DNA of 32,000 nucleotides, from the NCBI GenBank assembly GCA_016840465.1, contig JAEOSH010000012.1, forward strand, positions 1-32,000, written 5' to 3'. The stretch comes from Candidatus Baldrarchaeum yapensis. Its GTDB lineage: Archaea; Asgardarchaeota; Baldrarchaeia; Baldrarchaeales; Baldrarchaeaceae. Within the stretch, counting starts at the first letter, position 1. Each line of letters opens with the position of its first letter. The notes under the pieces were generated by a model, which saw nothing but the letters and a program-made list of their open reading frames with translations, searched no databases and had not been told where the DNA came from. Shown here one piece after another: positions 1,301 to 29,537 of this stretch. The position numbers and the translations under genes are program-made.

Positions 1301-2002
1301 CTATGGCTTATACTGCGATATTACCATCGCATGTGCCTTATCAAAAGGCTCTAGATGCACTACGTCTTTTATTTCGAATCCACGGCTTTTAAGAGTCTCC
1401 ATCTCCTTCTTATACACCTCTGAGGGTTCCTTTGTTACGTCTATAGACCTTGCCTTGATAGCTAGGAATGCCCACCCTCCCTCCTTCAAGAAGAAGTCTG
1501 CATTATCGGCAAGAAGCCTTGCCTGCTCTGGTTGCGCGACATCCGCATAAATCACGTCTACTTCTTCAACTAACATCCTATACTGCCATGGGAAACGCGC
1601 ATCAGCCAGTATTGGAATCATATTTTTGCGATGTTCACAGACGGTCAATAACTCTCTCAGTATTCTCGGTGAGAACTCTATGCAGTAAACGATGCCCTCT
1701 ATACCGACAATATCAGCAACATGACTTGCAGTGGTTCCAGATGCGGCCCCAAGGTACAGTACTCTATCCCCCGGCTTTATTGGCATAAGCTTTATACCCT
1801 TCAATATGGAGGCCGCAAGTTTCGACCTGTAAGGATCCCAAGTCCGATACTCAACACCCTCTACTCGTGCAAGCCTCTCGCCGTAAACGCGAGTCCCCGG
1901 CGCGAGATTCTTCGTTGCAAGCCTCTCGACAACGTCATCCTCAAACTGTAACCAGTAAACCTCTTGGAACTTTTCATGAGGACGCACAGATGGGCTCATC
2001 AT
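1301..2002 (-). CDS. flpA: Fibrillarin, box C/D RNP 2'-O-methyltransferase
   Basis: [41 protein letters not shown] and DVAQPEQA motifs; ATGA overlap with the nop5 stop. Confidence 0.98.
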
Positions 2003-3222
2003 TTACCACCTCTCTTCTTTTTCTTCTTCCTTACTTTCTTTTCACGAGGCCTTTCAACCTTCCTCTTCGGGGGCCTCGGATACTTCTTCCTTATCTCTTC
2101 GATTCTCTTCATTAAGTCTTCTTTTAACTCATCCGCTATGTACTGACCGCTAAATGCGTCTACTCTCGCTGCAATTGCGAGTTTTCCAGCGAGAGCACGC
2201 GCGATTTTCCCGCGCTGCCACCTGGGTGCACGGTGTATCAGGGGGCTCTGGAATATCACTCCGTGCTTGGGAGGCTTTGCACCTGTTCTCAGGGCCCGGA
2301 ATAAAGCCTTCTCTGCACCTAAAACTTGAATTGTTGATGATGGCATTTTTGCCAACTCCTCGAGACTTCCCGCGAGGCTTATGAGGCGCGCACCAAGTAG
2401 TGGTCCCACGAGTCCCTTTATGTTGGGTGCAACCTCATCCATAGTCTCGCTTATGTACTCTTCTAAGTCCCTCCGTAACCTGTAGAGACCCAGAACTATA
2501 TTGGCAAGTTTTCTCAATCCCTCAATGTCCCTCTCAGTAACGTTCGCACCCATAGAAGTCTTCGCCGCAGACATTATTTTCGATATGAGATTATCATTTA
2601 ATCCGATTTCCTTAAGCTTCTTGGGAGAGAAGCTCGAACGCAACCCGAGTTTTGCAACCAAATTTATGAAATCCCGGTGTTCATCAACCAATTCATCAAG
2701 TTCGGGAAAGTGAAGGCTATACCATTCTCTTATCCTAGACGCAAATAAGTTTATTGTCTTATCAATGTCATCTATCGTTTCAATAGCCTGTGCAACGAAT
2801 CTATCTCGCCTCTCGGCTGCCTCTCTGATCTTCTTCTTTGATATTATCATACTGATCTCTTGAACGAATGGTATGTACTCGGTTATTGTCTCGACAATTC
2901 CAAACTCCTTGGCAAGTTGAGGAAGCCGTGCTCTAATGCTCTGTGCACCAGCGCTCGGCTTTTCTACAGAGATTAATGCATCCACAGTCTTCCTAAGCGT
3001 TGATGCGAGGTCCTCGCTCTCCACTATTATTTCATCAACTCCCCTTTTCTTGAGATTCTCTATCATTTCTAGTATTTCCTCTATTGCCTCTCCCTGCTGA
3101 AGTCTCATGATTTTCTCGGCTATCTGCTCTGGATCCTTCGGAAATAGGACCTTTTCGATCAGATTTTTATTTTCATCAAGAGCGAAGATTCCAATAGGGG
3201 TCTCTACAACGTATGTCTTCAA
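1999..3222 (-). CDS. nop5: Nop5 (Nop56/58 homolog), box C/D RNP core protein
   Basis: [44 protein letters not shown] and PPKHGVIFQ motifs; TTG start with GGAGG upstream; Lys/Arg-rich tail. Confidence 0.97.
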
Positions 3223-7508: not shown

Positions 7509-7880
7509 ATGTCGCTCGATGAAAAGGCATACGAAATAATAAAGGCGGCTGGAAAGGAAGGAATTCTCCAAAGCGAACTATGGAAGAAACTTGGTATTTC
7601 GAGCAGAGAAGGTGCACGTATAGTTTCTAGACTGGAGAAAAGAGGTCTCATCGAGAGAAAACGAGTAATACACAATGGAAGACGAACTTACAGGGTCTTT
7701 GCGCTCATTAAGGAGGAATCGCAGATCCAATGGGACACATTAGAAGGGTGCCCCTGCTTCACATGTCATGACCTTTACAGATGCGGCTCGGGTAACCCCC
7801 TCTCACCCGAGTTATGTGAAAAGATGACTAAATGGCTTATGAAGCTGGTAGACAAGTTTAAGGATTCCGAAACCTCTTAG
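7509..7880 (+). CDS. tfeB: Transcription factor E beta subunit (RPC34/RPC39-related winged helix plus Fe-S domain)
   Basis: GILQSELWKKLGISSREGARIVSRLEKRGLIERKR winged helix followed by PCFTC-x5-C-x10-C...W cysteine cluster. Confidence 0.85.
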   Translation: MSLDEKAYEIIKAAGKEGILQSELWKKLGISSREGARIVSRLEKRGLIERKRVIHNGRRTYRVFALIKEESQIQWDTLEGCPCFTCHDLYRCGSGNPLSPELCEKMTKWLMKLVDKFKDSETS

Positions 7881-8454
7881 CGATAATATAAATTTCTGCG
7901 CTCCTCTTCCGGGAAGCCTCCGGCTTATACGGTTTGACAAATGAGAAAAGTTCCTTGACATTTTTCAGAAAATCCTCAAACATGTCCCCTTGGAACACTT
8001 TAACAACAAAGTTTCCACCAACTCTCAAAACACTCCTTGCAATCTCTAATGAGCGCTGTGCCAAAAACACCTGGCGTGCATGATCAACACACCAAACGCC
8101 ACTAACATTTGGGGAACAATCACTCAATATAAGGTCGTACTTTTCAGGACATGCATCCATAATTTTCCTAAGCGTGCTATCATCCGTTATGTCCCCCTTT
8201 ATAAATACAACGCCTGGGAGCGGAGAAATATCGACTATATCTACCCCCACAACCACCCCATCCTTTCCGACCCTCTTTAGTGAGTATTGAAGCCATCCTC
8301 CAGGCGCACAACAAAGATCCAAAACACGCTTAACACCGTCGAAGACCCTGTACTTGCGGTCGATTTGCTCAAGCTTATAAATAGCCCTTGACCTATATCC
8401 CTCTCTCTTAGCTTTTAGATAGTAATAGTCCGGTTTACGCCTTCTCCTTTTCAT
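7858..8454 (-). CDS. rlmE: 23S rRNA Um2552 2'-O-methyltransferase (FtsJ/RlmE)
   Basis: AKREGYRSRAIYKL, VLDLCCAPGGW, SDCSPN, FVVKVFQG and SRKRSAEIY (K-D-K-E tetrad). Confidence 0.95.
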   Translation of the reverse strand: MKRRRRKPDYYYLKAKREGYRSRAIYKLEQIDRKYRVFDGVKRVLDLCCAPGGWLQYSLKRVGKDGVVVGVDIVDISPLPGVVFIKGDITDDSTLRKIMDACPEKYDLILSDCSPNVSGVWCVDHARQVFLAQRSLEIARSVLRVGGNFVVKVFQGDMFEDFLKNVKELFSFVKPYKPEASRKRSAEIYIIAKRFRNP

Positions 8455-8457
8455 AAA

Positions 8458-9663
8458 CTAAGCACCCTTTGTGAGTTCCTTAATTATCTTAACAAGCTCA
8501 CCCCTATTAGCATTCGTCTTTATTGCATTCGGATTGAAGTGCGTTTCCACTGCAATATATCCTAAGCTTCTGAGGTGCTCTATGAGCATTTTCTTCGGGG
8601 GTATAGTTACTCCCGCCTGTTTAGATAGCAGAGGTATAATATGGTAAAAAGGAGGAGCATTTGCTTCAAGAATTGCGAGTCTCAGCATTTTCTCAACCCT
8701 TTTTCCTTTACCTAGATGCTTAGACCCAAATACATCCATCATTTTTGAACAAAAATCTTTGGATATTATGTTCTTCGTCCAGATGGGTCCTCCGATCTCC
8801 ACCTTCTGCGATCCACACTCCACGCACTTGTCGATCTTACTCGGAACAACTTCCTCTACTACCTCTCTGTGGTTGCAGTCCCTACAGTGCAGTACGTATC
8901 CTAAGTTCCTAATGCTTTTATCTGCTCTTCCCGCTCCTTCAGACAATTTCAAGAACACTCTCACATGGTGCCTGTAATAGTATGCGAAAAGGGGCTCCAC
9001 TCCAATCTCGTATTTTGCCGCCTCCCTAACCACATAGGAGATTAATATGCGAACTGCGAGTTCATGGCAGTATTCTACTCTCAAGGGGACACTTCCATAC
9101 TTTCTTATGCATGCATTCTTATGTACACCGCACAGTGGCGCCATGTCCGTTGCCGTGAGGCATAACATTCCAGTTCTGCTCTTTATCACCTTAAACGCCG
9201 AATCTAGAAATGGGGATGGCGAGCCAAATGGATCTATATCAACAACTTCGAATCTAGTGGACTTCTCTGCAAGTTCCAACATTAATGCGCAAGCCTCTCT
9301 ATTAAACACTTGGACTTTGTCCTCCAAATTGTTTAATTTTACGTTCAAAGCCATCAATTTCGCAGCGATCGGATTCTTATCGTTTATCACGACCTTGACA
9401 GTACCATTAACCTCTTTGGCGTATCGGAGACCTCGTATTCCGCATCCGGAAAGGGGCTCGCATACGGACATCTCTCTATTTAACATGTCCTTATAGGCCT
9501 GCAGTGCAAGAACAGAAATATCCCTGCTCAGTTCCATTTCCGGGTTGTAAAAAACGGGGGCCTCCGTAGGCTCGAATATTTCCATGTCTGGAGCGAAGAA
9601 CCGCGTTTCCCCTTCCTGATACATTTTTATTGGGAATCCGAGGTTGACATTGTTGACGCTCAA
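8458..9663 (-). CDS. trm1: tRNA (guanine26-N2)-dimethyltransferase Trm1
   Basis: PVFYNPEMELSRD, GCGIRGLRY, DIDPFGSP, LTATD, CIRKYG and GPIW motifs. Start uncertain (9663 or ATG 9624). Confidence 0.95.
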   Translation of the reverse strand: MSVNNVNLGFPIKMYQEGETRFFAPDMEIFEPTEAPVFYNPEMELSRDISVLALQAYKDMLNREMSVCEPLSGCGIRGLRYAKEVNGTVKVVINDKNPIAAKLMALNVKLNNLEDKVQVFNREACALMLELAEKSTRFEVVDIDPFGSPSPFLDSAFKVIKSRTGMLCLTATDMAPLCGVHKNACIRKYGSVPLRVEYCHELAVRILISYVVREAAKYEIGVEPLFAYYYRHHVRVFLKLSEGAGRADKSIRNLGYVLHCRDCNHREVVEEVVPSKIDKCVECGSQKVEIGGPIWTKNIISKDFCSKMMDVFGSKHLGKGKRVEKMLRLAILEANAPPFYHIIPLLSKQAGVTIPPKKMLIEHLRSLGYIAVETHFNPNAIKTNANRGELVKIIKELTKGA

Positions 9664-26506: not shown

Positions 26507-27517
26507 TCACACTTCGAATCTCCTATCGATAATTTCTTTACAATCCGGGCCAGTCCCTATGAGCGTAACTGGGAGCTTAAGTTCGCTTTCTATCTTTTCT
26601 ACAAATTCCTTTGCTTGAGTGGGAAGTTTTTCGTACTCCTTTATCCCTCTTGCTTCCGGAAATAGGACATCAAGTTTTGTGAGCGCTATTTGGGTTGCAC
26701 TATTAAGCATAATGGCTCGCTTTGCTAGTTTGAAGTTGAAAGGCGCAGCACGCCTCTCTCTGCCGGTAACCGTCGCCACCTCGTACCATCCCCTCCTCTT
26801 AGCCTCCTCTTTACTTATCTCACCCTCTAAGGGCCCGCCACCCACCCTCGTTACATAGGACTTAAAGACGATGATCACTTCATCGACCTTCTTCGGCCCT
26901 AGTCCAACATCAGCGCAGGCGGACGCTGCACATACGTCTTTTGATGTCACGTAGGGATACGTTCCGTGATATAGTGATAGAAACGTGCCTTGCGTTCCCT
27001 CGACGATCACAACATCCCCTCGATCAACTGCCTCATTAACCTCTAGTGGAACGTCGGTTATATACGGCCGAAGCTCCGGAATTTGTTCAGCAACTTTTAC
27101 AACCCTCAGTGCCCGATCGGCATTTGCCGGACCGCACCCCGATCCGGTGGTCCCTATTTTCCCGGACAGATGCTTTTCCCTTCTATCCCGATCTATGTGC
27201 GACTGTTCTATTATCGCACAGTATTTATCTATTCCCACCCTGCCCTCCGCACCGGTCACTTCTACCTCCTTGAGAAAAACCTCGGGATTTACAAGCACTC
27301 CTGGTCCTATGAGTAGCCGTGCCTTTTCATAGACAAATCCACTCGGTATCTGTCTGAGTTTATACGTTTTACCCCTGTAGTGAACAGTATGCCCGGCGTT
27401 CGGTCCGACCCCAGCTCTCACAACTATGGATGCCTTATCCTTCAACGCTAGGTAAGATACTATTTTTCCCTTCCCCTCATCTCCGAAAAATCCGCCGACC
27501 ACGACCGTACACACCAT
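26507..27517 (-). CDS. purA: Adenylosuccinate synthetase (short archaeal form)
   Basis: GGFFGDEGKGKI, GPNAGHTV, IGTTGSGCGPA, EGTQG, YPYVTS and ATVTGRERR motifs. Confidence 0.97.
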   Translation of the reverse strand: MVCTVVVGGFFGDEGKGKIVSYLALKDKASIVVRAGVGPNAGHTVHYRGKTYKLRQIPSGFVYEKARLLIGPGVLVNPEVFLKEVEVTGAEGRVGIDKYCAIIEQSHIDRDRREKHLSGKIGTTGSGCGPANADRALRVVKVAEQIPELRPYITDVPLEVNEAVDRGDVVIVEGTQGTFLSLYHGTYPYVTSKDVCAASACADVGLGPKKVDEVIIVFKSYVTRVGGGPLEGEISKEEAKRRGWYEVATVTGRERRAAPFNFKLAKRAIMLNSATQIALTKLDVLFPEARGIKEYEKLPTQAKEFVEKIESELKLPVTLIGTGPDCKEIIDRRFEV

Positions 27518-27671
27518 GGATATCCCTCTCGGTCTTAGTAGTTCTTCCTTTTAAACTTTCCGGCAGATAGAATAACTTCTCACAATAGTTTCTCAATTTC
27601 GGAATTTGCGAGCGGAATCTAAACACTCATGGCAGGAGCATATAGTTGAGTTACTACTTTAAGCGGAATTG

Positions 27672-27678
27672 TTTAAAG
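27672..27678 (+). promoter_or_regulatory. TATA box for the box C/D sRNA
   Basis: TTTAAAG ends 22 nt before the first base of the 15-bp stem (27701), consistent with archaeal TATA-to-TSS spacing. Confidence 0.6.
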
Positions 27679-27700
27679 TTCAACGAATATAGAACTATAC

Positions 27701-27781
27701 TGATCCGGCAAAGGTAAGGATGAATACTTCCGGCGCCGATTTGGTGACGATAAGGCATTTATCTGAACCTTTGCCGGATCA
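27701..27781 (+). ncRNA. Box C/D methylation guide sRNA
   Basis: C box AGGAUGA 27717-27723; 12-nt guide; D' CCGA 27736-27739; C' GUGACGA 27744-27750; 12-nt guide; D CUGA 27763-27766; flanked by perfect 15-bp inverted repeat TGATCCGGCAAAGGT / ACCTTTGCCGGATCA. Confidence 0.9.
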
Positions 27782-27884
27782 TCTCGGCGTAACGTAATTT
27801 GGGAGGTATTACTTTCATCCGAATCAATTTTATAATGCAAAGCAAGGGATGTTTGAATAGTTTTGATCCAAGGTGCACGTTGAC

Positions 27885-29537
27885 ATGAGAACAAGATACA
27901 TTTTCGTAACCGGAGGAGTGATGTCCGGTATAGGAAAAGGCGTCACTACCGCCTCCATCGGGAAACTTTTCCAGTTTCGCGATTACACCGTTGACGCCAT
28001 TAAGATAGACCCTTATCTCAACGTGGACCCTGGAACTCTCAATCCCATCGAGCATGGGGAGGTGTTCGTAACAGAAGAGGTTTGGGAATTCGAGCCAGTG
28101 AAAGGAATGAAATTCAGAATCTCCGAAATAGATCAGGACTTCGGAACCTATGAGAGATTTCTGGGAAAAAACATTCACCCTAGGAATAATATCACGAGTG
28201 GACAGGTATACCTATCGGTAATTCTCAAGGAGAGGGCGGGGGAATTTCTCGGAAAGACTGTGCAAATAATTCCGCATATAACGGACGAAATAAAAAGGAG
28301 AATACGGCAGGTCGCCGAAGAGGAACAACCCGACATACTCATGGTTGAGGTTGGTGGAACGGTCGGCGATATAGAAGCAATGCCATACCTAGAAGCAATT
28401 AGACAATTTAGACTTGAGGAGCCTAGATGGGCAACCGCATTAGTCCACGTTACCGTCGTTCCTCGACTAAAAACCGTCGGTGAGCATAAGACGAAGCCGA
28501 CCCAGCATAGCGTGAAACTATTACAAGGAATGGGTCTACAGCCCGATGTAATAGTTTGCAGAAGCGATACGTTTCTCTCTGATAATATTAAAAGGAAGAT
28601 AAGCCTATTTTGTAATGTTCCCCCAGAAGCGGTTATTTCAAACCCCGATCTTGAATGTGTCTATGAACTGCCACTAATATTCGAGAGGCAGGGACTTGGA
28701 GACTACCTCTGTAAGTTATTAAACCTAGAGCCTCGCAAACCTTACACCGAGAAATGGAAAAAAGTGGTATCTAGGTTTAAGAATGCGAGAAGAAAAGTAC
28801 GTATAGCACTTCCCGGAAAATACACAGCAATCCATGACAGTTATATATCGATAAACGAGGCATTATCGCACGCGGCGGCATATTTGGACGCAAAAGTAGA
28901 GATATCATGGCTTGATTCCGAAAAATTCGAAAAGGATAAGAAATCTATGGAAACATTGAGCGAATATGATGGAATTCTGCTAACGCCAGGATTTGGAAGT
29001 AGGGGAGTGGAGGGAATGATCCTTTCTGCGATTTATGCGATGAAAAACGACGTGCCATTTTTAGGAATATGTTTTGGCGCTCAACTATTTTTCGTGGCAT
29101 TCTGCAGGGAATATTTGGGACTGGAAGGAGCGAACAGTACAGAAGTTGACCCGAATACAAAGTTCCCGGTCGTGGATTTACTTCCGGAACAGAAGCGCAT
29201 AACTGCCAAGGGCGGAACCATGAGATTGGGAGGGCATGAGGTAATAATCGAGGAGGGTACAAGATTATACGACGCCTACAAGAGAAGAGTGGTGATCGAG
29301 AGATTCCGTCACCGTTACCACATAATAAGAGAGTTCGCAAAGAGGGGAGAGGAGTACGGCCTCGTGATATCCGCATACGACAAAACCGGTCGGATAATAA
29401 ACGCAATAGAACTTGAAGATGCAAAGTGGATGGTTGGCGTTCAGTTCCACCCGGAGTTTAAGAGCCGACCGGATGCACCATCACCCATATATCTAGCATT
29501 TGTTAAAGAATGCTTAGAGTACAGAAGTAAGAGGTAA
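27885..29537 (+). CDS. pyrG: CTP synthase
   Basis: YIFVTGGVMSGIGKG, KIDPYLNVDPGT, EVGGTVGDIE, KTKPTQHSV, GICFG (catalytic Cys) and QFHPEF. Start ATG 27885. Confidence 0.97.
   Translation: MRTRYIFVTGGVMSGIGKGVTTASIGKLFQFRDYTVDAIKIDPYLNVDPGTLNPIEHGEVFVTEEVWEFEPVKGMKFRISEIDQDFGTYERFLGKNIHPRNNITSGQVYLSVILKERAGEFLGKTVQIIPHITDEIKRRIRQVAEEEQPDILMVEVGGTVGDIEAMPYLEAIRQFRLEEPRWATALVHVTVVPRLKTVGEHKTKPTQHSVKLLQGMGLQPDVIVCRSDTFLSDNIKRKISLFCNVPPEAVISNPDLECVYELPLIFERQGLGDYLCKLLNLEPRKPYTEKWKKVVSRFKNARRKVRIALPGKYTAIHDSYISINEALSHAAAYLDAKVEISWLDSEKFEKDKKSMETLSEYDGILLTPGFGSRGVEGMILSAIYAMKNDVPFLGICFGAQLFFVAFCREYLGLEGANSTEVDPNTKFPVVDLLPEQKRITAKGGTMRLGGHEVIIEEGTRLYDAYKRRVVIERFRHRYHIIREFAKRGEEYGLVISAYDKTGRIINAIELEDAKWMVGVQFHPEFKSRPDAPSPIYLAFVKECLEYRSKR

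Follow-up and report, generated by a model that had tools for sequence, protein, structure and literature searches.

A probable double-guide box C/D sRNA between purA and pyrG of Candidatus Baldrarchaeum yapensis, with two predicted methylation sites beside helix 69 of 23S rRNA

Our analysis indicates that the spacer between purA and pyrG of Candidatus Baldrarchaeum yapensis very probably encodes a double-guide box C/D sRNA. The element occupies positions 27701-27781 (+) of the 32,000-nucleotide stretch of contig JAEOSH010000012.1 that we analyzed (the window). It probably has its own promoter, and we predict that it directs methylation of a G and an A in 23S rRNA (C59:3164 and C59:3196 on the contig that carries the rRNA genes), as the Asgard orthologue of sR125 of S. 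acidocaldarius and sR109 of I. hospitalis. A preliminary description had called the element an unannotated box C/D guide RNA. That reading holds, given adjacent 23S targets, conserved guides, a stem and boxes that covary, and a target pair already published for crenarchaeal sRNAs. We conclude that it is an ordinary archaeal C/D guide RNA that was missed by annotation and that its unusual points are minor.

On re-reading positions 27701-27781, we found every element of the preliminary description in its place, base for base. The plus strand begins with the 5′ arm of a 15-bp terminal stem (27701-27715), which forms the C helix of a K-turn, followed by a 3-nt bulge, AAG (27716-27718), and the core of the C box, GAUGA (1b-5b; 27719-27723). 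Next come the D′ guide, AUACUUCCGGCG (27724-27735), the D′ box, CCGA (27736-27739), a UUUG loop that differs in length and sequence among homologues (27740-27743), and the C′ box, GUGACGA (27744-27750). The D guide, UAAGGCAUUUAU (27751-27762), is followed by the D box, CUGA (27763-27766), and the 3′ arm of the stem (27767-27781) begins directly after this box, forming a perfect 15-bp inverted repeat with the 5′ arm. Thus, the K-turn geometry first noted for the element, an AAG bulge before GAUGA and a D box directly before the stem arm, is present. Like archaeal C/D sRNAs in general, it has tandem sheared G·A geometry, a 3-nt bulge on the C strand and a D box abutting the stem, and this geometry is kept in six genomes. 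Both guide spacers are 12 nt, as had been reported, within the archaeal range of 10-12 nt (PMC7994747).

Two features depart from consensus. The C box reads AGGAUGA instead of RUGAUGA; its five core positions, GAUGA, agree, while G replaces the usual U at position 2 (L3), the bulge in relatives being GAU or AAU. In a review, a U at this position is cited as one of three features needed for binding by L7Ae/15.5K (PMC7994747). Given the variability of archaeal C boxes, this G lowers the case for a C/D sRNA without excluding the element from the class. Second, although D′ and C′ boxes with a short loop between them are present, C·C stands at 3b′·3n′ where the closest relatives have U·U. The preliminary description had proposed that the D′ and C′ boxes carry matching U-to-C changes. 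Since the closest homologues have U·U, with CUGA and UGAUGA as their boxes, both changes are derived, and to that extent the proposal stands. A strictly compensatory reading fails, as in distant homologues the C of the C′ box occurs with either a U or a C in the D′ box, and UGACGA is found with CUGA. At most, the two changes appear to be loosely correlated.

The predicted fold of the RNA has a z score of -6.4 to -7.0 relative to shuffled sequences, mostly due to the palindrome. For the same reason the opposite strand, read as RNA, folds equally well, but it lacks C/D boxes and is sense to rRNA; the plus strand is therefore fixed by the boxes and by guides that are antisense to rRNA. In a rough scan of the genome, the 15-bp terminal stem was the longest among candidate C/D sRNAs, the others having stems of 4-8 bp. 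A long stem might offset a weaker K-turn or shield the ends during trimming, and stem ends have been proposed to stabilize di-sRNPs (Yip et al. 2016).

The genome is a 2.27-Mb MAG of 100 contigs, with a full 23S rRNA and a partial 16S rRNA (5′ part missing) on contig C59. Scanning C59 for pairing, we found that the D′ guide pairs with the organism's own 23S rRNA at G000:C59:3160-3171 (CGCCGGGAGUAA) through 10 Watson-Crick pairs and one G-U pair, with one terminal mismatch. The D guide was placed on C59:3192-3203 (CCAAAUGCCUUG), where 9 Watson-Crick pairs and one G-U pair cover 3194-3203. Taken singly, these matches are unremarkable, as they were equaled by 106/1000 and 257/1000 shuffled guides; both guides matched within 60 nt for 3/1000 shuffled guide pairs. 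Both sites fall in domain IV, separated by 32 nt, with the D′ site on the 5′ strand of helix 69 (H69) and the D site on the H70/H71 strand; their surroundings are the universally conserved H69-H71 stretch. The residue at N+5 is the G at C59:3164 (the first G of GGGAGUAAC) for the D′ guide and the A at C59:3196 (the third A of CCAAAUGCC) for the D guide, and each of these residues forms a Watson-Crick pair with its guide.

We took C59:3170 as the residue equivalent to E. coli A1912, which puts the predicted sites at -6 and +26. Since BLAST found no match to the 23S target region in E. coli genomes, the E. coli numbering comes from the anchor of Dennis et al. (2015, PMC4644070), in which A1912 is alignment position 2178. 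By this anchor, the sites are approximately E. coli G1906 (alignment 2172, the base of H69) and A1938 (alignment 2204). With m5C2278, G2283 and G2288 of yeast 25S rRNA as reference points (PMC4174444), the D site is yeast A2281 and the D′ site is yeast G2249.

As the 16S rRNA of the MAG is incomplete, a better 16S target for either guide is possible. Exact 12-mer targets elsewhere in the genome amounted to two matches, on C70 and C46; both were coding-like, at about chance frequency and on contigs without tRNA, and we rejected them. The rough scan also gave C/D sRNA candidates at G000:C69:2137-2183 (-), C56:27463-27511 (-) and C74:17453-17497 (-). The D guide of the candidate on C69 pairs with 23S rRNA at ~C59:3151-3161, directly 5′ of the D′ site described here and slightly overlapping it, so that H69 would be approached by two different sRNAs.

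BLAST and a two-guide pattern search identified homologues with both guide cores in 4/4 genomes of the same order (G001-G004) and in one genome of another family (G008). Within these loci the guides are kept while the flanks are not, and the boxes and stem covary. In the alignment of the six genomes, G-A-U of the C box, U-G-A of the D box, G-A of both internal boxes and the 4b′-4n′ G-C pair are invariant, and the cores of both guides are conserved, that of the D′ guide in the five other genomes. The K-turn pair 4b-4n is G-C here and U-A in the five relatives, a compensatory change, and the four stem pairs adjoining the K-turn are all changed on both sides across the six genomes. Over the terminal stem and 4b-4n, 94% of cells are paired, compared to 33-53% in slid controls, and five of six pairs show compensatory change.

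Only one of the same-order genomes, G001, has an assembled 23S rRNA. Its target sequences are identical to those of this genome, and its D guide matches the D site perfectly, at 12/12 positions; the D guide of G001 fixes the target better than the window's own copy. The 23S rRNA of G001 contains a 581-nt intervening sequence (L135:955-1535) with an ORF (948-1457, -) for a LAGLIDADG endonuclease (Pfam, 1.5e-15). The insertion point, after CUCUUAA, lies precisely between the sRNA's two targets, and the window's own genome has no such insert.

Using a covariance model built from the six sequences, we detected the D guide core AAGGCAUU in 23 of the 151 sampled genomes of the phylum. Most of the more distant matches keep AAGGCAUU as their D guide and have other D′ guides, several of which are directed to the 3′ strand of H69. 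The 4b-4n pair is A-U in genus g3, where the terminal stem is 13 bp long; in another family the stem is ~10 bp, and the stems of the C/D homologues span 4 to 15 bp in all. Weak BLAST matches in relatives that share GACGATAAGGCATTT turned out to be protein-coding (D-D-K-A-F) and were set aside. This DNA is present in hydrothermal-vent and sediment metagenomes, and a search for RNA runs with the locus or with the 101-nt element returned none.

These data bear on whether both arms methylate their targets. If the RNP forms but the main role of one arm, or of both, is to chaperone rRNA folding through pairing that does not lead to efficient methylation, one could accommodate the two D-guide bases next to box D, which are unpaired on the organism's own 23S rRNA in contrast to full pairing in same-order relatives, as well as the non-consensus K-turn (G at L3) and K-loop (C·C). 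The sites also bracket H69, a folding-sensitive region, and helices 68, 69 and 71 have been described as methylation hotspots (Dennis et al. 2015, PMC4644070). However, the 9 Watson-Crick pairs and one G-U pair of the D guide still span the N+5 position, the pair at N+5 is Watson-Crick in both arms, and C′ boxes reading UGACGA recur among the homologues. We consider a predominantly chaperoning role unlikely and prefer a methylation guide.

Pfam confirmed both genes flanking the spacer, in agreement with the earlier placement of the element. Upstream, purA (26507-27517, -) is divergent; downstream, pyrG (+) most likely starts at ATG 27885 and not at GTG 27873 of the ORF list, and gene calls of other assemblies give a pyrG of 550 aa (MRTRYIFVTGG...). 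Across four families, at least 12 homologue loci have a divergent purA 5′ of the sRNA. Related genomes had been suggested as a place to look for the same element 5′ of pyrG, and it is there in the same-order genus g2 (4/4 genomes) and at single loci in G020 (family f8) and G025 (family f13). Searching for related loci with pyrG itself returned bacterial CTP synthases only.

The box TTTAAAG (27672-27678, +) is a TATA-like sequence and the putative promoter of the sRNA. As the preliminary description had it, its position suits a start at the stem, the box lying 29 nt 5′ of the first stem base. T/A-rich boxes, read by eye, lie at an equal distance 5′ of the terminal stem in 5/5 close homologues. 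These boxes fit independent transcription of the sRNA, which is the rule for archaeal C/D sRNAs (Lui et al. 2018).

Conservation of the position between purA and pyrG in several Asgard families would also be expected of a cis-acting K-turn and hairpin element that binds L7Ae or another factor and regulates pyrG or purA, instead of a guide acting in trans; binding of L7Ae to mRNA K-turns in archaea has been proposed (PMC5539422). Conservation is nevertheless concentrated in two rRNA-complementary guides and not in the flanks, and the crenarchaeal orthologues are catalogued as sRNAs. Moreover, purA runs in the opposite direction, and pyrG is preceded by a separate TATA-like box, TTTTATAA, at ~27829-27836, between the sRNA and the ATG at 27885. 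A cis-regulatory element is therefore highly improbable compared with a trans-acting guide RNA.

Downstream of the element, pyrG of all 4/4 same-order genomes is interrupted after ...DAIKIDP by a 31-32-nt insert (L136:2007-2037 in G001, and at the same place in L137, L138 and L139). An in-frame TAA opens the insert, which includes a hairpin of 9-10 bp and causes a frameshift; removing the insert restores DPYLNVDPGT, as in the intact pyrG of the window. Its fold consists of a helix, a 4-bp helix, a 3-nt bulge (UAA), a hairpin, a 4-bp helix, a 3-nt bulge (GAA) and a helix. As this is the layout of a bulge-helix-bulge, we regard the insert as a candidate mRNA intron that the tRNA-splicing endonuclease would cut.

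It is scarcely credible that the element has no function in this genome, whether as a C/D-like palindrome in decay or due to chance, or as a MITE-like repeat: despite its non-consensus C-box position 2 and C′/D′ boxes, the unusual length of its perfect inverted repeat and the precedent of sRNA-like, MITE-like elements in Pyrobaculum, its stem arms occur only once in the genome and hence form no repeat, its sequence is unchanged in four other, independent assemblies of this organism, neither guide nor any G·A position is disrupted, and orthologues are found across the phylum.

The proteins that would serve such a guide RNA are encoded in the genome. Nop5 (1999-3222, -; Pfam Nop, 8.5e-77, and Nop5_56-rel_N_Arc) and the methyltransferase fibrillarin (1301-2002, -; Pfam Fibrillarin, 5.8e-105), both of which would act in trans, lie in the same window, as first reported, and two genes of the L7Ae family are found elsewhere in the genome. 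The window also contains a gene for an FtsJ/RlmE-like 2′-O-methyltransferase (7858-8454, -) beside that for Trm1, a tRNA m2,2G methyltransferase (8458-9663, -).

A model for the double-guide sRNA follows the established mechanism of C/D RNPs. Transcription would probably start from its own promoter, with the TATA-like box at 27672-27678. The K-turn would be made up of the C and D boxes with the 15-bp stem closing them, and the K-loop of the C′ and D′ boxes. L7Ae would bind both motifs, after which Nop5 and fibrillarin would assemble. With the D′ guide base-paired to the 5′ strand of H69 and the D guide base-paired 32 nt downstream at H70/H71, fibrillarin is expected from the N+5 rule to 2′-O-methylate G C59:3164 and A C59:3196.

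Current understanding of C/D RNPs is unchanged by this element. What it adds to an Asgard genome is an unannotated, well-supported guide RNA; we found no catalogue of Asgard C/D sRNAs in the literature searched. In addition, the homologue set shows clean natural covariation at K-turn pair 4b-4n (G-C, U-A and A-U) and supplies natural variants for testing what L7Ae tolerates, namely the G at L3, the C·C combination at 3b·3n and stems ranging from 4 to 15 bp.

At gathering score, Rfam gave no match in the whole window. With permissive thresholds, nine of ten weak matches within 27500-27900 were to C/D-box families, all on the plus strand over the element and none near its cut-off; such weak scores are expected for a family with different guides. 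Among these, snoPyro_CD (RF00095, 16.8 bits), sR9, sR11, sR15 and sR17 resemble the element in the order of their boxes, their spacers of 12 nt, their ~50-nt core and their K-turn/K-loop arrangement. Their scores of 14.6-17 bits compare with cut-offs of 36-45, and they differ from the element in having unrelated guides and short terminal stems.

The closest known relatives are S. acidocaldarius sR125 and I. hospitalis sR109, whose D target is 23S A2204 and whose D′ target is 23S G2172 in the alignment numbering of Dennis et al. (supplementary tables of PMC4644070). Like the element described here, each is a double guide, and the two methylation positions and their assignment to the D and D′ guides are the same as those we predict. 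In the same paper, the labels P40 and T40 fall near these alignment positions. Both sRNAs have the D-guide core AAGGCAUUUG in common with this element, and the D′ guide of sR109 is nearly identical to the one found here. The D′ guide of sR125 has CCCCC where the rRNA of S. acidocaldarius has GGGGG, while I. hospitalis and this genome have a U opposite the A of GGGAG. These differences track the rRNA, which we read as guide-target covariation across phyla. Both published sRNAs are from Thermoproteota and not Asgard archaea, and their published sequences show no long terminal stem; the element here differs by having a 15-bp stem, a G as the second C-box nucleotide and C·C within the C′/D′ motif. 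No Rfam model recovers the sR125/sR109 family at gathering score. Since the same pair of D and D′ targets has been published for sR125 and sR109, we assign the element as an orthologue of a known sRNA family that is absent from Rfam. One double-guide sRNA, aimed at the base of H69 and the H70/H71 strand, would thus be conserved from Thermoproteota to Asgard archaea.

In yeast, the site predicted for the D guide, A2281, is one methylated by snR13 (25S Am2280/Am2281), and the core of the D guide is complementary to the same universally conserved strand. The human counterpart of snR13 is SNORD15 (U15). Only the 3′ guide region of the Rfam SNORD15 model matches the element, and faintly (10.4 bits, E = 6.7, against a cut-off of 75 bits), a score far too low to show common descent, and snR13 gave no Rfam match at the element under permissive thresholds. 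These eukaryotic snoRNAs also differ in length and architecture and are without a second guide to the base of H69, and the likeness can be explained by the common target alone. It is doubtful that the purA-linked double-guide lineage, present in Thermoproteota and across Asgard archaea, is the direct ancestor of eukaryotic snR13/U15. If it were, the guide gene, beyond the methylated site Am2281, would have been inherited vertically from the archaeal host, and the long external stems of several Asgard lineages (15, 13 and ~10 bp) would aid processing or stability, in a way comparable to the external stems on precursors of eukaryotic snoRNAs.
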